A program made the translations under genes and the position numbers. The notes beneath the pieces were generated by a model, which was not told where the DNA came from, did not search any database, and worked only from the letters and a program-made list of their open reading frames with translations. From positions 51,869 through 115,868 of the forward strand of contig CAZHMI010000001.1 in NCBI GenBank assembly GCA_964533795.1: a stretch of 64,000 nucleotides of DNA, in the 5' to 3' direction. Below, in pieces: positions 20,427-51,141 of this stretch. Within the stretch, counting starts at the first letter, position 1, and the number at the start of each line of letters is the position of its first letter. The DNA comes from an uncultured Candidatus Bathyarchaeia archaeon. GTDB lineage: Archaea > Thermoproteota > Bathyarchaeia > 40CM-2-53-6 > CAYOZM01.

Positions 20427-21353
20427 TTGCGCCCTACCTATGTGAGCATGATGTTTGCACAAGATGCCCTAGACCTGATCGGCAACACTCCGCTGGTCAA
20501 AATCAACAGGCTAACTCAAGAGAACGATGCAATCATACTCGCGAAGCTAGAGCAATACAATATAGGCGGCTCAGTCAAAGACCGAATCGCGAAATACATG
20601 ATTGAACTCGCAGAGAAAGAAGGCAAACTAACCAAAGACAAGATAATACTCGAACCTACATCCGGGAACACCGGCATCGGCTTAGCAATTGTAGCCGCTG
20701 TCAAAGGATACCGAGCATTATTTGTCATGCCCGAGTCCGTAAGCACAGAGAGAAGGAGAATCCTTCAAGCATTTGGAGCAGAAGTCATCCTAACGCCGGG
20801 TGAGAAAGGCACCCCGGGCGCAATTGAAGTAGGCTACAGAATGGCTGAAGAACATCCTGAGAAATACTTCCTTCCAGACCAATTCAACAATCCCCACAAC
20901 ATTCTGGCGCATTATGAGACAACAGGTAGAGAGATCATCGAACAAACTGCTGGAAAGCTAGATGCCTTCATAGCGGCCATGGGAACCACTGGAACGCTGA
21001 TGGGCGCTGGAAAGCGACTAAAGGAATATGATCCGAAGATCAAAGTCATAGGCGTTGAACCTGTCTTCGGTCAAAGGATTCAGGGCATGAGAAGCATGAA
21101 GGAACCTTTCCCGCCTTCCATCTTCGATGCCAGAAAGCTTGATGAACGGATCTACGTCCGCGAGAAAGACGCCTTTGAAATCGCAAGAGAACTAGCACGC
21201 AAAGAGGGGTTACTTGTCGGCATGAGTTCAGGCGCGGTCATGTTCGTTGCACTGCAGAAAGCTAGAGAATTCGGGAAAGGCAAAGTGATCGTTGCGGTTC
21301 TACCGGACACTGGTGAACGCTACTTGAGCACTGCTCTCTTCGACGTGAAGTGA
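20427..21353 (+). CDS. cysK: Cysteine synthase / O-phosphoserine(O-acetylserine) sulfhydrylase family (fold-type II PLP)
   Basis: SVKDRIA (PLP lysine), the EPTSGNTGIGLA glycine loop, and GxSSGA near the C-terminus. The true start is probably the internal MMFAQ. The stop overlaps the next gene by 4 bp. Confidence 0.85.
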   Translation: MRPTYVSMMFAQDALDLIGNTPLVKINRLTQENDAIILAKLEQYNIGGSVKDRIAKYMIELAEKEGKLTKDKIILEPTSGNTGIGLAIVAAVKGYRALFVMPESVSTERRRILQAFGAEVILTPGEKGTPGAIEVGYRMAEEHPEKYFLPDQFNNPHNILAHYETTGREIIEQTAGKLDAFIAAMGTTGTLMGAGKRLKEYDPKIKVIGVEPVFGQRIQGMRSMKEPFPPSIFDARKLDERIYVREKDAFEIARELARKEGLLVGMSSGAVMFVALQKAREFGKGKVIVAVLPDTGERYLSTALFDVK

Positions 21354-21985
21354 AGGACACTGTGTTAATCGATATCTTAAGACTTAGAGATCATGAAGAA
21401 GTCGATCCCTTCCGGTTTAAGAAACTCATGAATGAAATGATTGAGGATCAGTTCCAGAGAGACCCAATCATCGTTGACAAAGAATCCGGCGTAGTGTTGG
21501 ATGGACATCATAGACGGAACATCCTGAAGACCCTAGGCTACTCGAAGATTGCTTCTTACCAAGTTCAATATATCAAAGACGATAAGATCAAAGTCAAGAC
21601 TTGGTATCCAATCGTAGTAGACTTGGAAAAGAAATTGATGCAGACGATCTATGACTACAAGATAGAGTTAACGCCAAATACCAAGAATAATTCGAAGAAC
21701 CAACTTGTACTCAAGGGTAAAGCCTTCCAGTTAGTATCTAACAGAAACGAGGTCATGAAGTCTTTACTTGGGAAGATAAGATTCCGGTACGTACCCACTT
21801 TGAGTATTGCCTTACGCTTAGTCGAGGAAGGGGGAGCCGCTGCCGCCTTTGTCTTTGAGCCAGTTAAAAAAGAGGATGTGTTGGAGGCTGCTCTTTCAGG
21901 AGAACCTTTCCCACCGAAGACTACGAGGCATATTTTCGCTAGTAGGCCGAGAAACTGGTTCATACCTCTAAAGGAATTAAAGTAA
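21350..21985 (+). CDS. ParB/Srx-fold protein, inferred ADP-dependent free-serine kinase (SerK)-like (copy A)
   Basis: DPIIVD...VLDGHHR is a ParB N-terminal/sulfiredoxin-type motif. It is translationally coupled to cysK. A paralog lies at 25906..26577, and the two copies are 100% identical over their last 124 nt. Confidence 0.55.
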   Translation: MKDTVLIDILRLRDHEEVDPFRFKKLMNEMIEDQFQRDPIIVDKESGVVLDGHHRRNILKTLGYSKIASYQVQYIKDDKIKVKTWYPIVVDLEKKLMQTIYDYKIELTPNTKNNSKNQLVLKGKAFQLVSNRNEVMKSLLGKIRFRYVPTLSIALRLVEEGGAAAAFVFEPVKKEDVLEAALSGEPFPPKTTRHIFASRPRNWFIPLKELK

Positions 21986-21991
21986 AGACTT
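21868..21991. repeat. 124-bp perfect inverted repeat, left copy (3' end of ParB/SerK-like copy A)
   Basis: Reverse complement is identical to 25901..26024, checked base by base. Identity is lost immediately outside on both sides. Confidence 0.9.
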
Positions 21992-22208
21992 AGAAGATAT
22001 GAAGACTATTTCGCAACTAGCATCTTCTTAGAGATTATCTGCAGTATCAGGATTTATTTCCTAAAGGGTCTAGCCGCTGAAACTTTGTATACCGGTTGAA
22101 GATTTATCGTGTTTTAGTTTGAATGAATGGTTTCAAAGAAACGTCTATAAGGTCATCAATTGAGTTTGCTTTCCTTGTTGACCGTGCGTTTTGTTGGAGC
22201 AGATCTGA

Positions 22209-23087
22209 TTGAAAGCTGAACCTGCTTGTATTCCATGTATTCTGCACGATGTATTCTGCACTGGAAAGCTTGCGACGAATAATGTGAATACGCAGATGGC
22301 CATTCTGAGAGAAGCAAGCAGAGTAGTGGCAGAGAAGACCTCAGCCCATGTCACCCCTTCGCAACTCAACACACACGCTTACAGAGTCGTGAAGCGTATG
22401 ACTGGCATCGACGATCCATATAAAAGGATCAAACGTGCCAGTGGTTCGATTGCGGTGAAGGTTGCCAAGCTTGTCGAAAGAGAACTTACGAAAATAAGGA
22501 ATCCTGAAGTCAGATTTAGACGATGCATCCTTTATGCGATTGCAGGAAACCTTATAGATTACGGGGTTATGGGGCACACATTTCGGGGGAAGAAGAGTCT
22601 TGAGAAAGCCATCAGGCAAGGATTGGCTTTTGATGATGTCTCAAAGATCTTTAGAAAGGTGAGATCATCGCGGAATGTGCTCTATCTACTGGATAACAAT
22701 GGTGAAGCTTTCTTTGATGCTTTGTTGATAAAGGAAATAAAGCGGTATGGACCAAGAGTGGCGGTCGTAGTTAGAGGCGGCCCAGTGTCAAACGACGTAA
22801 CTTTGGCTGACATCTCACAGATAAGCTTGGATAAGCTTGCCGACGAGGTTATCACTACAGGTAGCGATGCGTATGGAATTGAGTTCGCTAGAGCAAGCAG
22901 GAAACTTATGAAAACGTTGAAGACATGCGATCTGATAATAAGTAAAGGCCAAGCGAACTATGAGGATCTTAGCGAGATAGAGGACGGCATATCAGGATCG
23001 ATTGTCTATCTTTTGAACGCGAAATGCGAACCCATGGCACGAACAATGAAGGTTAAGATCGGCGAAAACGTAGCGAAGTACGTTTAA
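22209..23087 (+). CDS. DUF89 (ARMT1-like) metal-dependent phosphatase family protein
   Basis: DNNGEAFFD and KGQANYE signature motifs of DUF89. Confidence 0.7.
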   Translation: MKAEPACIPCILHDVFCTGKLATNNVNTQMAILREASRVVAEKTSAHVTPSQLNTHAYRVVKRMTGIDDPYKRIKRASGSIAVKVAKLVERELTKIRNPEVRFRRCILYAIAGNLIDYGVMGHTFRGKKSLEKAIRQGLAFDDVSKIFRKVRSSRNVLYLLDNNGEAFFDALLIKEIKRYGPRVAVVVRGGPVSNDVTLADISQISLDKLADEVITTGSDAYGIEFARASRKLMKTLKTCDLIISKGQANYEDLSEIEDGISGSIVYLLNAKCEPMARTMKVKIGENVAKYV

Positions 23088-23163
23088 GGCGAGGGTTCTT
23101 GCCAAGAGGGTTCCGCCAAAACACCTGAATTGCGTGATGCGGCAGGCTGAATTTAAGCTATCA

Positions 23164-24024
23164 TTACAGAATCGTTTTGATTTCTATCGCTTCTTCTATT
23201 GTTTCTAGCGCCTTTACTCCATCCCGAATAGAGGGGGCTGGATGGACCTTCTGCTTTACGGACGAGATAAAAGAGTTCAACTCTTTTTCAAGAGGCGGCT
23301 TCCAAGCGATCGGAACTTCTGCCCTGTCTACGAACAGTCTCCATCTGTTATCTTCAAAGAAGGCATAAACGACTCTGTCTTCAAACTCAAGCACCCATCG
23401 CCGAACCCTCGGTCCAAGACAATCGGATATAATCATAGCTTCTGTTCCGCCTTCGAACTTGAGCTCCAACTGCCCAAAATGAAATCTTTCCATGGAACGG
23501 ATCACTGTTCTTCGAGGTTCGCCTAACATCCAGCGCAGTAGGTCCACATCATGAATCGCTAGATCTTTCAAGACCCCCGTTTTCTGCGCCACAAGAGTTG
23601 GGGTGCCTGACCTCTGGCAGAAGATTCTCAATGGCTTCTTCAATGCGCGTGTAACAAAATGAATTTTCCGAAATACCGGGTTGAATCTTTCAATAAAGCC
23701 GACCATGACAATTATGTCAGGGTTTTCTTTGGCAGCATCCTCTATCTTTCGTGCTTCCTGTAAGGAGCTCGCCATAGGCTTTTCGATGAAAGTATGTCTT
23801 CCTGCCAGTATAGCTTTCGAGGCCACATCGGCTAAAGATTCGGCTGGAACAACGACATCAACAACATCAACGTTTTCTATTAGACTGTCTAGCGAGGGTG
23901 TTGAGTTAGAGTAACGGGGGTCATAGATTGCTCTTAGTTCAATATCTGCATGTCTGCTCCATGCGTTGTAGTGTCTCTTCCCCCAGTTTCCGAAGCCCAC
24001 TAAACCCAATTTCAGCTTTGACAT
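23164..24024 (-). CDS. Gfo/Idh/MocA family NAD(P)-dependent oxidoreductase
   Basis: N-terminal Rossmann motif LGLVGFGNWG and the EKP motif (TFIEKPMA). Confidence 0.8.
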   Translation of the reverse strand: MSKLKLGLVGFGNWGKRHYNAWSRHADIELRAIYDPRYSNSTPSLDSLIENVDVVDVVVPAESLADVASKAILAGRHTFIEKPMASSLQEARKIEDAAKENPDIIVMVGFIERFNPVFRKIHFVTRALKKPLRIFCQRSGTPTLVAQKTGVLKDLAIHDVDLLRWMLGEPRRTVIRSMERFHFGQLELKFEGGTEAMIISDCLGPRVRRWVLEFEDRVVYAFFEDNRWRLFVDRAEVPIAWKPPLEKELNSFISSVKQKVHPAPSIRDGVKALETIEEAIEIKTIL

Positions 24025-24027
24025 CCG

Positions 24028-24354
24028 CTATCCCTTCTCAATCTGTTTTCTAAGCTCGTTCTGCCAGACTCCAAGATCGCCTTTACGAATGACAGTATCC
24101 CAAGCCTCCTCTATGTCATCTACATCAATTTTTCTTTTCGACTGAGAGGCAATCCAATTCGCTTGTTTCTGGATGAAACGGCGTAGCTTGTCCTTAGAAA
24201 CGCGTAGATTCTTGATGAATTCCTGACTTTCTTCAGAGTCCAGCAATTCCTCAACCCTAAAATCGGCCTCACTCGTTAGTGGCAAATCTGTGGGTGATTC
24301 AAGTGATTTGTTGTCCAGTTTTCTGTCGTGGCTCAAGAGTTTCTCCTGATTCAA
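24028..24354 (-). CDS. Hypothetical acidic/charged small protein
   Basis: ORF abutting the oxidoreductase gene (4-bp spacing); no motifs recognised. Confidence 0.35.
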   Translation of the reverse strand: MNQEKLLSHDRKLDNKSLESPTDLPLTSEADFRVEELLDSEESQEFIKNLRVSKDKLRRFIQKQANWIASQSKRKIDVDDIEEAWDTVIRKGDLGVWQNELRKQIEKG

Positions 24355-24477
24355 TAGAGAACTGCTCGAAATTTATGTAAGTATCGGAAACCTGAGGTTA
24401 ACCGCCAAGATAGAGTCATGCTTCACCCGCTTCGCCACCTTTGTAGAGTAGTATAAAAGGAGGAATGTGCACGTTGA

Positions 24478-25884
24478 ATGGAGACCACGTCAATGGCGAG
24501 TTTGAATAGAAGTCGTTTTGCAGCACTCGTGATCATTGCGCTTTGCATTAGCATTAGTCTATTGGCCTTCTTCTACTTCGGTGTCCTACAAAGCGTCTAT
24601 CAAGAGCGAACGACGGGGCAAGACGCGTATAGCCAGCAGACTGAATTTCTGCTTCGCGAGGTTTTAGAAAAGATAGGCCAAGTTAGAGAACTCTCTCCAC
24701 CACAAAACATACCTTTGAAGGCCGTCACGGTCGACTGGGTTGAGGAGAACTGGGGAAAAAAATTTGCTGAAGAAGCATCGACGGAGTTACAAGTTGAAGA
24801 AGAGATCTATAAAGCACTTTTCCTCATGCCTCAGAACCTTTCTCTTGCTGACGTTATGGTTGAGCAGTCTGGGGCTACGATGGCGGCGGTGTGGGAAGGT
24901 AGCTTGTATGTTGTTAGAGAACATTTCAATCCATTCGATAAACTGTCTGCGGAGCGGACTTTGGCTCATGAGATTATGCACATCATGCAGGAGCATTACT
25001 TCAAGGATCCTGACGCGCGTCTTCACGACGAACTCCAAGCTTGGGGCGCTCTAATAGAAGGAGACGCAGGATTTACTGCGGACAAGTATATAGACGAAGC
25101 AATGGCTAGACCCGTAATTTCGGATGTCCTCGTATTTGTCTCCCTTTCTGAGAAACCATTGATCGTGACTCACTTCCTCGCAGTGGAAATGCCAGAATCA
25201 CTTGTTGAACTATGGCTTTTCCGCTACAGATACGGGGAGAATTTTGTCTCTGCGTTATACGGAGTAGGCGGGTGGGATAAGGTTAACGCAGCCTACATGA
25301 ATCCTCCTCGAACTACTGAACAGATTTTGCATCCGGAAAAGTATCTTGAAGGTGAGAGTTTCGCGGTGGTAGATTCTATCTCGTTGAATAGTTCCTACTG
25401 GAATCTTGTTAAGACGGAAAGGTTTGGCGAACATTTCGTACGTGTAATGTTGAGCCGCCACATACCGCGAGATGATGCTGTAAAGGCGGCAGAGGGATGG
25501 CAAGGAGACAATTTCACGTATTATAGGAACGAAGAAAGTCATCTATTCATATGGAAGATCGTTTGGGATACTGAGCGCGACTCGATTGAATTCTTCGATT
25601 CGTTTGGACAAATGATGGATGCTGTCGGAGCTCGTCAGATACAGCCTAGCTGCAAATGTTCCTCGAATAACACCGTCAAGTGGAAAGCTGGAAATCAATA
25701 TGTTTCACTCGTAAGAAACCAATCGTCAACCATCATCACTGGTTCCACTGAGCTGAACGGGTACCAGCCAAATTTCTATGCAAGCTCGCCCATCCCATTT
25801 CTGGCCGTATCTTCGGGCTCGTACGACATGAAAGATCTATATTTGTGCCAAGAGAACTTGAAAACTTCTAGAAGATTCGCTTAA
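24478..25884 (+). CDS. Membrane-anchored putative zinc metallopeptidase (HExxH)
   Basis: N-terminal TM (AALVIIALCISISLLAFFYF) and an HEIMHIMQEH (HExxHxxQ) motif. Confidence 0.5.
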   Translation: METTSMASLNRSRFAALVIIALCISISLLAFFYFGVLQSVYQERTTGQDAYSQQTEFLLREVLEKIGQVRELSPPQNIPLKAVTVDWVEENWGKKFAEEASTELQVEEEIYKALFLMPQNLSLADVMVEQSGATMAAVWEGSLYVVREHFNPFDKLSAERTLAHEIMHIMQEHYFKDPDARLHDELQAWGALIEGDAGFTADKYIDEAMARPVISDVLVFVSLSEKPLIVTHFLAVEMPESLVELWLFRYRYGENFVSALYGVGGWDKVNAAYMNPPRTTEQILHPEKYLEGESFAVVDSISLNSSYWNLVKTERFGEHFVRVMLSRHIPRDDAVKAAEGWQGDNFTYYRNEESHLFIWKIVWDTERDSIEFFDSFGQMMDAVGARQIQPSCKCSSNNTVKWKAGNQYVSLVRNQSSTIITGSTELNGYQPNFYASSPIPFLAVSSGSYDMKDLYLCQENLKTSRRFA

Positions 25885-25900
25885 TCAATACGCCCGTTCA

Positions 25901-26024
25901 AGTCTTTACTTTAATTCCTTTAGAGGTATGAACCAGTTTCTCGGCCTACTAGCGAAAATATGCCTCGTAGTCTTCGGTGGGAAAGGTTCTCCTGAAAGAG
26001 CAGCCTCCAACACATCCTCTTTAC
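25901..26024. repeat. 124-bp perfect inverted repeat, right copy (3' end of ParB/SerK-like copy B)
   Basis: Identical to the reverse complement of 21868..21991. Confidence 0.9.
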
Positions 26025-26577
26025 TTATCGGATCGAAGATTATTGCACAGCTTGCTCTTCCAGTCTCAACAAGTTTTCTGGCAAACGTCGCAGATGGCGC
26101 ATAATTAATCCTGACTTTTCCCACTAGAACGCCCATTATTCTTCTCCTATCCGATCTCACTGTCAGTATTCTATCGCGAAATATTAGATGACCTGAGTTG
26201 CCTCGCGCTTCCCTATCTGGATTTATTCCGCTGTCTCCCAGAAGCTTCAGCAGGCTACTCTCAGAATCCATAATCGTTGGATACCAAGCTTTCACCATTA
26301 TGCTAGCGTCGTTCAGATAGTTGACAGAATGAGCGGCGATCCTTGAGCAGCCCAATGTTTTCAATATTCTTACTCTGTGATGACCATCAAGGATTACCTT
26401 ATGGTTTGCGTCGATGATTATTGGGTCCCTTTGATATCCGTCCTGAACCAATTCCTTTTTCAATTCTTCTAGATGGAATGGATCTATTTCTTCGTGTTCT
26501 TTCAGCTCTGAGATTTTGGTCAAGGCAAGTGGCGGCCTAGCACTTGCCTGAATAGCTATAATCGCTGACATATTCAA
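25906..26577 (-). CDS. ParB/Srx-fold protein, inferred SerK-like (copy B)
   Basis: DPIIIDANHKVILDGHHR motif. Its N-terminal half matches copy A at about 55% amino-acid identity (eyeballed over ~90 residues), and its last 38 codons are nucleotide-identical to copy A. It lies immediately downstream of TrpB2. Confidence 0.55.
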   Translation of the reverse strand: MNMSAIIAIQASARPPLALTKISELKEHEEIDPFHLEELKKELVQDGYQRDPIIIDANHKVILDGHHRVRILKTLGCSRIAAHSVNYLNDASIMVKAWYPTIMDSESSLLKLLGDSGINPDREARGNSGHLIFRDRILTVRSDRRRIMGVLVGKVRINYAPSATFARKLVETGRASCAIIFDPISKEDVLEAALSGEPFPPKTTRHIFASRPRNWFIPLKELK

Positions 26578-26672
26578 GCGCTGAAGCCCTCAATGGATGC
26601 TTTTACCGAGAAATCTTGTCCAGCTTGTGGAATCAAATGGAGCTTTACGTTCCTTGTTGGGAAGGGTAAAGG

Positions 26673-28067
26673 TTAGTAAGGCAAGGTTTCCAGCCATGGA
26701 TAAAGCTCCCTCAGCTTCTTCATGGCCTTCTGCACTTCTTCTTGTGGGTACGCGTAGGGTGGAAGTTTGCCTTGGAGGTAGTCGTCGAAGGCTTGCATGT
26801 CGAAGTGTCCGTGGCCACATAGAAGGAACAGGATGGTCTTCTCCTCGCCAGTTTCCTTGCATCTCAACGCTTCGTCGATGACGCCTTTAATGGCGTGGGA
26901 TGGCTCTGGAGCCGGTATCGTGCCTTCAGTCTTGGCGAAAAGCTTGGCTGAGTCAAAGACTTCCACTTGGTTGTAGGCTCTTGTTTCCACTTTCTTCTCC
27001 AAGGCGAGCAAGCATAAGGTGGGAGCCATACCGTGATAGCGCAGGCCTCCCGCATGGATCGGTGGCGGTATGAACTCGTGGCCTAAGGTATGCATCTTAA
27101 TCAAGGGGCTTAGCCTCGCCGTGTCACCATGGTCGTACATGTATTCTCCCTTGGTAATGGAGGGACAAGCCGTGGGTTCAACAGCTACGAACTTGATGTC
27201 CTTCGGGGCCTTTCCTGAAACTTTGTCATAATAGAAGGGCCAGTAAAGCCCAGAGAAGCTGCTGCCTCCGCCTATACACCCGATTATTACGTCCGGGTAA
27301 TCGTCCACCACTTCAAGTTGCTTTTGGGCTTCCAACCCTATCACGGTTTGGTGCGTGAGGACGTGGTTGAAGACGCTTCCTATGCCGTAATTGGCTTCCT
27401 CGTGGACGAGGGCGTCCTCTGCGGCTTCGCTGATGGCGATCCCTAGGCTGCCAAGATTGTCGGGATCTTCTTTTAAGATCTTTCTGCCAGCCTCTGTTTT
27501 GGTGCTCGGACTTGGATATACCTCGCCACCCCAAAGCTCCATTAGAACCCTTCTGTAGGGCTTCTGATAGTAGCTCGCCTTCACCATATACACGGTGCAC
27601 TTAAGCCCGAAAGTCATACAACCAAAGACTAGGGCGGAGCCCCATTGGCCAGCCCCCGTTTCCGTAGTCATGCGTTCTACGCCTTCCTTCATATTGTAGT
27701 ATGCCTGCGGAACGGCGGTGTTGGGCTTATGGCTTCCTGGGGGGCTAACGCCCTCGTACTTGTAATAGATCTTGGCAGGGGTCTTCAAAGCCTTCTCTAG
27801 TCCAAAAGCCCTGAAGAGAGGGGTAGGTCTCCAGAGCTGATAGACTTCCCTTACTTCTTCAGGAATGTCTATCCATCTTTCCTTGCTAAACTCTTGAGCA
27901 ATAATCTCTTTAGGAAACAGCTTGGGGACGATTCCAGGTCCAGGTGCCCTCTTGTCTGGCTCTATTGTTGGAGGCAACGGTTTCGGTAGATCAGGTAGTA
28001 TGCAGTACCATTGTTTGGGTATTTCCTCTTCATTCAATAAGATCTTCTTAGATGGCATGTTTTTCAC
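26673..28067 (-). CDS. trpB2: TrpB2-type tryptophan synthase beta chain (stand-alone, fold-type II PLP)
   Basis: N-terminal extension typical of TrpB2 (464 aa); [12 protein letters not shown] lysine; GAGQWGSA; [10 protein letters not shown]. Confidence 0.85.
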
Positions 28068-28148
28068 TTACCACGCTGTGGTGTATTGGCGCTGAATATT
28101 TCACAGTAGTGGGGATATAGGAAATATTTTAAGCTTACGCGTACAAAT

Positions 28149-28670
28149 ATGTACGCGTGGCGCTCCATGTGGAACAGGATAGTGAAATACCTAGAAACCC
28201 ATCCAGAGCGGTTATCCGTGGCAAAACTACTAGTGCAGAATGGTCTGAGCATACGGAATGGAAAGATATATTGTAACGAGATAGAGGTTCCGCCCATAAG
28301 AATAGCTAGGGTCTCAAGGGTTGATCGAAGAACCGTAACCGAGACAATAAAAACCATCGAAGGAAACCCTGATCTCCAAGTCATATTCAAGAACATAAGG
28401 TCGGCAGGCCACTCGCTCAAAGAGATCGCTCGACATCTGGGCTTGGGCGTGGTGGAGATAACGCCTATGGATGCGAAAACCCCGGGAATACTTGCTCGTT
28501 CAGCTACATTGATAGCCGAGAGAAACATCAGCATCAGACAAGCGATAGTTGATGATCCGGAACTCTCGCCAGAGCCGAAGTTGACACTGATTACTGAGAC
28601 AAAAATCCCTGGAGAACTCGTTCCAGAGCTTCTTAAGGTAAGAGGTGTCGCAACAGTCTCAATATACTAG
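28149..28670 (+). CDS. Putative regulator of amino-acid metabolism (HTH plus C-terminal ACT-like domain), divergent from trpB2
   Basis: HTH-like LSVAKLLVQNGLSIRNG and a C-terminal ACT-like beta-alpha-beta region. Its divergent placement recalls TrpY. Confidence 0.4.
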   Translation: MYAWRSMWNRIVKYLETHPERLSVAKLLVQNGLSIRNGKIYCNEIEVPPIRIARVSRVDRRTVTETIKTIEGNPDLQVIFKNIRSAGHSLKEIARHLGLGVVEITPMDAKTPGILARSATLIAERNISIRQAIVDDPELSPEPKLTLITETKIPGELVPELLKVRGVATVSIY

Positions 28671-28925
28671 AAATCTTCATCATTTGAACGCTAAGTAAGC
28701 GATTAAGCTTATCGCTATAAGCCCCGCTGCCATCAAGAGTACTACTTCAGGTCTCAATTTTATCCCGAGCGTCTCTTCCTCAAAGAACCTGAGTAACCCT
28801 GCGCTTGCGGCGGGCATTGGCGCCTCGCTTCGACGCCTCTTCTCTCTACGACTCAACCACTATCCCTTTGCAACAAAGATAGTCGGCAACGGTGCTTTAA
28901 ACTTTAAAACCGGAAGCAGGCGGCG

Positions 28926-30251
28926 TTATCTTACGCGCAGGTATTCGTAGGCGTCTCTAGCTGTATCGAATGCGAAGTGCACCTTCTGAAAGCTTTTTCT
29001 GAATTCCTCCACATCTCCTCTCACTTTCTCGGTCGGTTCGTTGTCGATTACAACTCTCTTCATAAACTCGGCGATTTCGATCATCTCAGATTCTCTCATG
29101 CCCAACCTAGTCACTTCCGATGCCCCGACTCTTATTCCTCCAGGGTTTTGGAAGTGCCGACCTTCTTTAATGTCCCATGGAAGCAGATTTCTATTCAGTA
29201 TAATGTTTGCTTTTTCCAGCTTCCTTTCTAAATCGCCGCCGAGCCCGTACTTTGTTACATCTATGATTACCACATGAGACTCCGTGAATCCTTTATGTTC
29301 GCCTAGCACTCGAAAACCTCGTTCGAAAAGCGCTTGCCCCAGAGCCTTGGCGTTCTTCACTATTTGTCTACTATACTCTTTTCCAAACGCGAGCATCTCA
29401 GCTAATACAACAGCTTTGCCAGCAACATGGTGCAAGTGATGGTTACTAACATTACTCGGAAAGACTTTGCTCTTTATCAAATCACCATACTTGCTCCAAG
29501 AGAGTATTAAGCCGCCTTGGGGTCCAGGCAACGTCTTATGTGTGCTACAAGTCATGGCGTCCGCTCCCTCCCTCAATGGATCTTGAAAAACCCCGCCCGC
29601 GATCAACCCGGCCACATGGGCTCCATCATAGCAAGCTTTTGCGCCTACGCTATGAAACGTCTCAACCAATTCTTTGACTGGATGCGGGAAGGGCAAGACG
29701 CTAGCGCCGAACATAGCGAGTTTGGGAGGAAAATTCTCCTTCGCCATCTCCTCAACTTTGGCCTTCGTCTTATCGACGTCGATGGTCAACTCTTTATGGT
29801 CAAATGGAAAATACTCAACCTTGAGTCCGTGCACAGCGCCAGCTGTGCCGCCGAACTCAAGTTTTCCCATGCTTATATGACCGCCAGCAGGGATAGCCAA
29901 AGCCATCATTCGGTCGCCCGGGTTGCTGAATGCGGTATAAACTGAAAGGTTAGCGCATACGCCTGAAACTGGGCGGACATCGGCAAACTCAGCGTTGAAC
30001 AGTTTCTTAGCCAGTTCGACACAGAGAAGTTCAACCTGATCTATAAAGGTGCAACCAGCGTAAACTCTCTCTCCAGGCCATCCCTCTGCATAGCGGTTTC
30101 CGAAATCTGTTATAATCGCTTCTCGAACCGCTGGGCTTGGAATATTTTCGCTGGCGATCAGTGGAATGCTTTTGGAGAACCAGTCGTGATGCTGCTGCAG
30201 AAGTTGAAACACTTTATCATAATACTCACGAGGCGTAGACATCTCTCTCAA
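28926..30251 (-). CDS. glyA: Serine hydroxymethyltransferase
   Basis: SIPLIASEN...; PLP lysine region THKTLPGPQGG; 441 aa. Confidence 0.9.
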   Translation of the reverse strand: MREMSTPREYYDKVFQLLQQHHDWFSKSIPLIASENIPSPAVREAIITDFGNRYAEGWPGERVYAGCTFIDQVELLCVELAKKLFNAEFADVRPVSGVCANLSVYTAFSNPGDRMMALAIPAGGHISMGKLEFGGTAGAVHGLKVEYFPFDHKELTIDVDKTKAKVEEMAKENFPPKLAMFGASVLPFPHPVKELVETFHSVGAKACYDGAHVAGLIAGGVFQDPLREGADAMTCSTHKTLPGPQGGLILSWSKYGDLIKSKVFPSNVSNHHLHHVAGKAVVLAEMLAFGKEYSRQIVKNAKALGQALFERGFRVLGEHKGFTESHVVIIDVTKYGLGGDLERKLEKANIILNRNLLPWDIKEGRHFQNPGGIRVGASEVTRLGMRESEMIEIAEFMKRVVIDNEPTEKVRGDVEEFRKSFQKVHFAFDTARDAYEYLRVR

Positions 30252-51025: not shown

Positions 51026-51141
51026 GCCGGGATGGCTGAGTGGTTAAAGCGACGGCCTCGAGATCTTTATACGGATGGGCCTGACAGGATAGCCGTTGGG
51101 CGCTTGCGCCCTCGAGGGTTCGAATCCCTCTCCCGGCGCCA
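51026..51141 (+). tRNA. tRNA-Ser (anticodon CGA), type II long variable arm, ~28-nt intron in the anticodon loop, encoded CCA
   Basis: Acceptor stem GCCGGGA/TCCCGGC; D arm GCT-GAGTGGTTAA-AGC; anticodon stem ACGGC/GCCGT with loop CTCGAGA, interrupted by an intron at ~51064-51091; variable arm GGGCGCTTGCGCCC; T arm GAGGG-TTCGAAT-CCCTC; then G-CCA. Confidence 0.7.

Follow-up and report, generated by a model that had tools for sequence, protein, structure and literature searches.

The 64-kb stretch of contig CAZHMI010000001.1 from an uncultured Candidatus Bathyarchaeia archaeon (hereafter the window; all coordinates are positions within it) contains two convergent genes for SerK-like kinases, serK1 on the forward and serK2 on the reverse strand, whose 3' ends form a perfect inverted repeat of 123 bp around a 3.9-kb block of other genes. 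It is very likely that this repeat is the scar of an old homologous, or strictly homeologous, recombination between the 3' ends of the two paralogs, which inverted the 3.9 kb lying between them. The perfect repeat is a product of that event and not a prerequisite for it.

The inverted repeat and the inverted gene block

The repeat pairs 21869-21991 with its exact reverse complement at 25900-26022 and extends more loosely to 140 nt at 95% identity (21852-21991 / 25900-26039); no other repeat in the whole window reaches 35 nt. A first-pass annotation of this DNA had recognized the perfect inverted repeat, but gave it as 124 bp, with 21868..21991 matching 25901..26024, which is off by 1-2 nt. It correctly held that each arm takes in the last 38 codons (KEDVLEAALSGEPFPPKTTRHIFASRPRNWFIPLKELK) and the stop of both genes, the TAA being followed by 6 nt of shared DNA and not by the 7 nt then reported. 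Over their whole length the two proteins share 52% identity (108/207), which falls to ~41% outside the common 38 residues. Among the relatives there is no comparable repeat: in six related genomes, the last 117 nt of the serK pair are 66-71% identical, with longest perfect runs of 8-12 nt, and the DNA further upstream is 47-50% identical. Because the paralog ends of the relatives are no more alike than this, chance fails to explain the block, the expectation for 123 identical nucleotides being 0.71^123 ~ 5e-19. Purifying selection was likewise considered and rejected as the cause of the identity of the arms, as their synonymous sites are identical too and the ends of the relatives have diverged to the degree given above.

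Upstream of the left arm lies a cysK/cysM-type cysteine synthase gene followed by serK1, and upstream of the right arm trpB2, for a TrpB-like enzyme, followed by serK2. Between the arms are genes for a DUF89/ARMT1-like phosphatase, a Gfo/Idh/MocA oxidoreductase (GFO), a small open reading frame (ORF) and an HExxH protein (Table 1). In about 20 related contigs (L056-L058, L060-L064, L066, L068 (=L002), L003, L004, L069, L071 and L073-L077), each read as far as it reaches, the order is cysK> serK1> <HExxH small> GFO> (<KptA) <DUF89 <serK2 <trpB2; in their gene maps, serK1 and the HExxH gene point at each other, or DUF89 or GFO comes after trpB2-serK2, or both. The inner block is flipped only in the window and in a sister contig, Ga0315314_1002001 (L001 = L059), which is collinear with the window at 92.7% nucleotide identity over 7.5 kb in blastn. 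When the window is compared by blastn with L068, L069 and L056, collinearity holds along the left flank, gives way exactly at 21869 to a reverse-strand high-scoring segment pair (HSP) that spans all four inner genes, from DUF89 to HExxH, and ends at ~25811, and returns at 25920.

The junctions can be placed using diagnostic sites, i.e., positions at which the consensus sequences of the relatives' serK1 (type 1) and serK2 (type 2) differ. Upstream of 21869 both genes of the window keep to their own type, serK1 being type 1 at 47/58 sites and serK2 type 2 at 49/58. Over 21869-21970, both window copies are serK2-type at 14 of the 19 sites, serK1-type at 2 (the isolated sites 21910 and 21961 within a mosaic tract) and neither at 3, and the sister is type 2 at 15/19 sites of the same tract. 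The last 15 nt of the window copies are mostly type 1, with sites 21967 and 21968 still type 2 and sites 21972 and 21973 type 1. The same pattern is seen in the proteins: in the alignment, the relatives' serK1 products end in ...LKVALSNDPF..HIIPSRPKNWFIPLKELR, while the window serK1 product has the serK2-type end ...LEAALSGEPF..HIFASRPRNWF. The serK1 gene is thus a chimera, serK1-type as far as 21868 and serK2-derived from 21869 onward, and the last ~14 nt plus the stop of serK2 are serK1-derived.

The sister contig has its last arm-to-arm mismatch at the equivalent of 21868, just as the window does, and its arms are identical over 102 nt only, equivalent to 21869-21970. Past this tract, its serK2 ends in KELK, followed by TAG ATT and the end of the HExxH gene, the same as in the relatives' serK1 genes. 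Its serK1 ends in EDLK, followed by TAA AGGTTC..CAGAGCTGAAGGCTATTTCGC, matching the relatives' serK2 end and the spacer between serK2 and DUF89. The best match to this serK1 end is found in the nearest non-inverted relative, L071, where serK2 ends in GDLK, followed by TGA GGATTCGGTCGGAGCTGAAGGCTATTTCAC (GDLK, TGA...GGAGCTGAAGGCTATTTC when read into the downstream DNA). As the sister serK2 end is serK1-like and the sister serK1 end serK2-like, the exchange was reciprocal. The two junctions lie ~100 nt apart and the DNA between them is serK2-type in both copies, so that a non-reciprocal (3:1) tract, 21869-21970, stands beside a reciprocal exchange of the distal ends and the downstream DNA. The sister contig preserves the original product of this exchange. 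Among the options offered by the first-pass annotation, it is accordingly the first, namely gene conversion, recombination or inversion between the paralogs, that is borne out: the segment is inverted relative to the ~20 related contigs, its breakpoints fall inside the repeat, and the common tract is serK2-type in both copies.

When the segment flips, the bodies of both serK genes stay put, since the repeats take in only the 3' ends of the two genes, which converge. An inversion leaves each of them behind its own partner, cysK or trpB2, and exchanges only the DNA downstream; the earlier proposal that a flip would move serK from behind trpB2 to behind cysK is therefore wrong. In the ancestral order, DUF89 stood behind trpB2-serK2 and the HExxH gene converged on serK1; in the window, DUF89 stands behind cysK-serK1 and the HExxH gene converges on serK2. 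The shift of DUF89 from trpB2-serK2 to cysK-serK1 is the sole structural consequence of the inversion, and the gene moved with its own upstream spacer of ~220 nt, the two lying in one contiguous HSP (21869-23087). As the repeat runs through both stop codons, a further flip in the window would alter neither protein, and for this reason protein searches cannot detect the orientation.

Polarity, later homogenization and the probable course of the exchange

More distant relatives have a single serK with no DUF89 nearby and so could not polarize the inversion. A second tree, in which L071, L072, L074 and L077 were added and serK2 was rooted on serK1, gives (L072,(L071,(window,sister))), the clade as a whole having 95% bootstrap support; in L071, the block is not inverted. 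We take the inversion to have probably occurred on the stem of the clade formed by the window and its sister, because an ancestral window order would need two events with boundaries coinciding within ~13 nt. It is older than the split from the sister lineage, which is 7% diverged in DNA. The earlier description of the event as very recent thus applies to the last homogenization of the arms only and fails for the inversion, which predates that split.

The later homogenization has left its mark on the window alone. Three window-specific substitutions, 21874 G, 21910 C and 21937 C, are each present in both arms: 21874 is A in every other sequence, 21937 is T in all serK2 relatives but L075, and the C at 21910 is the serK1-type state. 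In addition, the identity of the arms extends for 21 nt across a region where the sister arms differ, covering the last five codons, with the serK1-derived KELK in both copies, the TAA stop and a further 6 nt whose origin is ambiguous. From the substitutions shared by the arms and the length of the identical tract, 123 nt as against 102 nt in the sister, it follows that at least one further conversion took place in the window lineage after the sister split. As far as sequence comparison reaches, the inversion, the positions of its junctions, the donor copy and the later homogenization are established.

The course of events that best accommodates these observations would be as follows. The ancestor would have had the order cysK>serK1> <HExxH small> GFO> <DUF89 <serK2 <trpB2, and its two serK genes would have agreed at only ~70% of positions over their final ~115 nt. 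On the stem shared by the window organism and its sister, an exchange between the serK ends would have inverted the ~3.9 kb between them through a crossover with an associated gene-conversion tract, with serK2 as the donor and serK1 as the recipient, as in double-strand-break repair; an equivalent route would be a conversion first and then a crossover within the newly identical tract. This founding event would have created a perfect inverted repeat of ~100 bp, which in turn would have opened the arms to renewed exchange. After the sister split, one or more conversions in the window lineage would then have added the 21 nt of identity across the stops and brought three new substitutions into both arms. 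We infer that the exchange was the work of general RadA-type recombination without a dedicated recombinase, whether in a single step or in two, and that it served no regulatory purpose.

Several points weigh against this reconstruction. Arms that are only ~70% identical, with no perfect run longer than 12 nt, are a poor substrate for strand-exchange proteins, which leaves room for a microhomology-mediated or template-switch route. All the sequences are metagenome assemblies, and the window orientation rests on the assembler having resolved a 123-bp repeat. The first tree, a neighbor-joining tree in which serK1 and serK2 rooted each other, left the polarity without resolution, with bootstrap supports of 30-50% and the window and its sister branching first within serK2. 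Finally, the stop and the following 6 nt are ambiguous, matching the sister serK1 version at 6/9 positions and the DNA downstream of the relatives' serK1 at 5/9.

Alternative explanations and comparable systems

The first of these points bears on the possibility that replication template switching, or else repair mediated by microhomology, joined the diverged 3' ends and so produced the inversion. Consistent with such a route, the ancestral arms would have shared 66-71% identity in runs of 8-12 nt, and each junction coincides with a short motif common to both sequences, AAAGAAGA.GT at the left one and ATACC..TAA at the right one. However, the product is fully reciprocal, with neither loss nor duplication at either junction, and the continuous 3:1 tract of ~100 nt between the junctions is the classic outcome of double-strand-break repair; moreover, archaeal recombination tolerates short, diverged donors (PMC3367456). 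We consider this route unlikely.

It is similarly improbable that the segment is still invertible, with general recombination at the repeat flipping the 3.9 kb within the population and the assembly recording only the majority orientation. A perfect inverted repeat of 123 bp is a competent substrate, and exchange from arm to arm after the window-sister split is documented by the three shared substitutions and the longer tract; nevertheless, conversion without crossover accounts equally well for this homogenization, and both available genomes of the window-sister clade share one orientation. In favour of flipping, a Logan contig breaks at the edge of the repeat, and several JGI contigs break inside serK1, but the latter breaks lie in the 5' part of the gene, away from the repeat. 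Specifically, in four metagenome contigs of close relatives, the start of L059 and the ends of L082, L083 and L084 fall in the 5' third of serK1, around residues 34-85, and may reflect strain heterogeneity or the short similarity of serK1 and serK2 around the DGHHR motif. A recombinase-free "inverton" that toggles DUF89 between the cysK-serK1 (cysteine) and trpB2-serK2 (tryptophan) transcription units is quite improbable; if it existed, the repeated homogenization of the arms would be the trace of flips in living populations.

The reverse polarity, in which the window orientation is ancestral, the other genomes were inverted once and the identical tract of the window and its sister stems from an unrelated non-crossover conversion, is very unlikely. 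It was in line with the first, unresolved tree, but with more taxa the window and its sister are nested within the 95%-supported clade, the next member of which, L071, has the common orientation. It would also require two events meeting at 21868/21869 within the narrow interval noted above, where an inversion on the window-sister stem needs only one.

Highly improbable, too, is an assembly artefact, in which similar 3' ends were collapsed or chimerized to produce a false identity and possibly a false orientation. The first-pass annotation had allowed for such a collapse, and the assembly is indeed of the metagenome type, with the 123-bp repeat shorter than typical reads or the maximum k. Against this, the sister, which is 7% diverged and comes from an independent assembly by JGI, shows the gene order of the window and likewise has arms that are identical, over 102 nt. 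A k-mer chimera was rejected, as the segments joined by the window-specific extension of 21 nt have no more than 8 nt in common, which does not suffice to produce one. The Logan contig, from run SRR10095340 and recovered through an exact look-up of DUF89, is 99.94% identical to window positions 21988-23570 and reaches only 4 nt into the repeat, which is where a contig should break if the repeat is genuine; being short and stopping at the repeat, it is silent on the orientation.

A programmed site-specific switch with a dedicated recombinase is extremely unlikely, even though, as in the invertons and shufflons (Hin/Gin/Cin, Fim, Rci), a gene cassette flanked by inverted repeats is found in two orientations in different genomes. 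Unlike in those systems, there is no recombinase gene close by: a scan of ORFs from 8243 to 44865 gave no recombinase, integrase or transposase Pfam domains. The 123-bp arms derive from the coding sequence of diverged paralogs and have become identical in one clade only, and a flip yields neither an alternative protein end nor an alternative promoter, although the scan for bacterial (sigma-70-type) promoters and terminators, which gave nothing useful, is unsuited to archaea. With no recombinase in the scanned ORFs, no alternative protein end, no repeat in the relatives and an orientation that is bound to clade and tracks the phylogeny, the locus is in all likelihood not an inverton or shufflon.

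Recombination between the serK ends would instead place the locus alongside a mechanism that is already known, that of tufA/tufB, of which it is a natural archaeal instance with no new mechanism involved. In Salmonella enterica, the tuf genes are inversely oriented paralogs on one chromosome, and show non-reciprocal transfer, inversion of the interval between them and later concerted evolution; about half of the conversions come with inversion of the interval, a figure that, as Hughes 2000 is reported in PMC5485169, applies to conversion events selected at one site. The corresponding features are all found here, namely inverted paralogs, an inverted interval with breakpoints in the repeats, a 3:1 tract and concerted arms. 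The differences lie in scale and in substrate. The tuf genes are ~99% identical over 1.2 kb and hundreds of kb apart, and their exchanges were observed in the laboratory, whereas the serK proteins are ~41-52% identical, the exchange ran through the last ~115 nt only, at ~70% identity, and inverted 3.9 kb in an uncultured archaeon, where it is reconstructed from comparison. The founding exchange between arms only ~70% identical is the unusual part.

Inverted rRNA operons or insertion sequence (IS) copies of bacteria and archaea offer a more general parallel, in that general recombination flips the interval between them and the orientation varies among strains. The repeats in those cases are long and near-identical before the event, whereas here the perfect repeat results from it. 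For the patchiness of the tract, there is a likeness in Sulfolobus acidocaldarius, where short DNA of moderate divergence is converted in discontinuous patches during homologous recombination (Mao and Grogan 2012; PMC3367456); the tract described here is a comparable mosaic, mostly serK2-type with serK1-type sites interspersed. The Sulfolobus work, however, is a laboratory transformation assay in a cultured crenarchaeon, whereas the present case is a natural intrachromosomal event in an unrelated, PolD-encoding lineage.

Gene content of the locus and the SerK-like kinases

The coordinates of the genes, repeat arms and junctions are collected in Table 1. The gene calls made in the first pass (DUF89, Gfo/Idh/MocA, the small ORF, HExxH, cysK-like and TrpB2-like) hold on family searches. 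Exact-sequence look-ups gave no match for serK1, serK2, P0001, GFO, the HExxH protein or trpB2.

Table 1. Features of the serK1-serK2 locus in window coordinates
Feature	Position	Strand	Evidence or remark
cysK/cysM-type cysteine synthase, upstream partner of serK1	20427..21353	+	outside the inversion; TIGR01136 373.6 bits (cut-off 344); collinear in all relatives
serK1, SerK-like kinase (ParB/Srx fold)	21350..21985	+	5X0B profile match; NF053625 94 bits (cut-off 380)
Recombinant junction, serK1 copy	21868..21869	+	serK1-type before it; serK2-derived after it, intergenic DNA and DUF89 included
Left arm of the 123-bp inverted repeat, serK1 3' end	21869..21991	+	exact reverse complement of 25900-26022
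21-nt extension of arm identity	21971..21991 (mirror 25900-25920)	+	window lineage only; sister arms differ there
Segment inverted relative to relatives, 3.9 kb	21992..25899	.	reverse alignment of 21869-25811 to L068 14181-9735, likewise L069 and L056; flanks collinear
DUF89/ARMT1-like phosphatase	22209-23087	+	inside the 3.9-kb segment
Gfo/Idh/MocA oxidoreductase (GFO)	23164-24024	-	inside the 3.9-kb segment
Small ORF, 108 aa	24028-24354	-	inside the 3.9-kb segment
HExxH protein, DUF8575/Hvo_1808-family surface protein	24478-25884	+	inside the 3.9-kb segment
Right arm of the 123-bp inverted repeat, serK2 3' end	25900..26022	-	final 5 codons (KELK + stop) serK1-type
serK2, SerK-like paralog 3' of trpB2	25906..26577	-	serK2-type down to ~25923; NF053625 68 bits (cut-off 380)
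Recombinant junction, serK2 copy (mirror of 21968-21972)	25919..25923	-	serK2-type above; serK1-derived KELK, stop and HExxH-gene end below
TrpB2-type TrpB-like PLP enzyme, upstream partner of serK2	26673..28067	-	outside the inversion; NF009057 698 bits (cut-off 366); collinear in relatives
TrpY-family regulator	28149-28670		adjoins trpB2
SHMT	28926-30251		near trpB2 and the TrpY-family regulator

The gene content of the inner segment varies among the relatives, with variable ORFs in L056 (4660-5277), L057 (9544-10242), L058 (9710-10387 and 13314-13973), L062 (6060-6770 and 9824-10363) and L068 (12400-12939). In some of them, an ORF resembling protein-L-isoaspartate methyltransferases is inserted 3' of serK1; the version in L056 lacks the GxGxG stretch and looks internally deleted. 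Several have a gene for a KptA/Tpt1 RNA 2'-phosphotransferase between GFO and DUF89. The window and its sister have neither the methyltransferase-like ORF nor the KptA/Tpt1 gene. DUF89 is missing in L057, L063, L064 and L077, and wherever present it lies directly 3' of a serK gene and co-directional with it, this being serK2 ancestrally and serK1 after the inversion. As a speculation, the damage-control phosphatase DUF89 may be functionally linked to the phosphoserine-producing kinase.

Elsewhere in the window, a gene for the DP2 subunit of PolD and a tRNA with an intron are archaeal markers. The tRNA, at 51026-51138, is matched by Rfam over 113 nt, as compared to the 71 positions of the model, with 52.7 bits, and was not found by ARAGORN in its bacterial mode; it is probably an intron-containing archaeal tRNA. 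A 156-aa ORF at 28064-28534 (-), antisense to the gene for the TrpY-family regulator, has no family match and is probably spurious.

A profile built from 23 homologs of the serK products matches the free serine kinase of Thermococcus kodakarensis (Tk SerK, 5X0B) with E 1.9e-28 over residues 15-241 of 242, and the alignment of this 23-sequence family has the invariant motifs H15/E16 (HE), D51-R55 (DGHHR) and P189-I195 (PKTTRH). Taken singly, the serK1 product matches 5X0B with E 4.3e-12, its E16 aligning with E30 of 5X0B, which we take to be the catalytic base of Tk SerK. Both paralogs score far under the cut-off of the NCBIfam SerK equivalog model NF053625 (Table 1), and for this reason we name them SerK-like only; they are distant members of the archaeal free-serine-kinase (SerK) family and not equivalogs. 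In a scan of genome contigs, the best SerK-like matches were 41-42% identical and came from metagenome-assembled genomes of Bathyarchaeota and Nitrososphaeria. The homology search separates two orthologous groups, a serK1-type (70-77% identical, 211 aa) and a serK2-type (218-223 aa), which often occur on the same metagenome contig.

Both SerK-like kinases are paired with a pyridoxal 5'-phosphate (PLP)-dependent beta-replacement enzyme (window 20427-30251), serK1 with cysK/cysM and serK2 with trpB2. In the former pair, the GTG start of serK1 overlaps the stop of cysK by 4 nt (GTGA at 21350-21353); in the latter, trpB2 lies immediately upstream of serK2 and has the TrpY-family regulator and SHMT genes as neighbours. 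Where serK is single-copy, it adjoins trpB2 in L009 (Bathyarchaeota) and cysK in L006 and L011. O-phospho-L-serine is a reported substrate of TrpB2 enzymes (Busch 2014, as cited in PMC11917138), and it is plausible that the SerK-like proteins supply O-phosphoserine to the CysK-type enzyme. The gene layout suggests dedicated modules leading from serine through phosphoserine to Cys in one case and to Trp in the other. With Tk SerK (TK0378; PDB 5X0B; PMC5120207), the window family shares homology over the full length, including the HE, DGHHR and C-terminal PKTTRH motifs. It differs in its low scores against the equivalog model, in the presence of two copies per genome and in that each copy adjoins a gene for a PLP enzyme, cysK or trpB2, an arrangement not seen in Thermococcales by Makino et al., who found SerK in Thermococcales and Desulfurococcales only and no operon with cysK (Makino 2016; PMC5120207).

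The locus provides a natural archaeal case, resolved to within ~13 nt, in which a crossover between short paralog ends of ~70% identity would have inverted a block of genes, the same event yielding a perfect inverted repeat that then evolved in concert. As such, it may be used as a reference case for what archaeal recombination tolerates, and it serves as a warning that inverted repeats of this kind in metagenome-assembled genomes need not be artefacts. The pairing of kinase and enzyme is perhaps of the greater biochemical interest, as each SerK-like kinase is encoded beside an enzyme that is expected to use O-phosphoserine.

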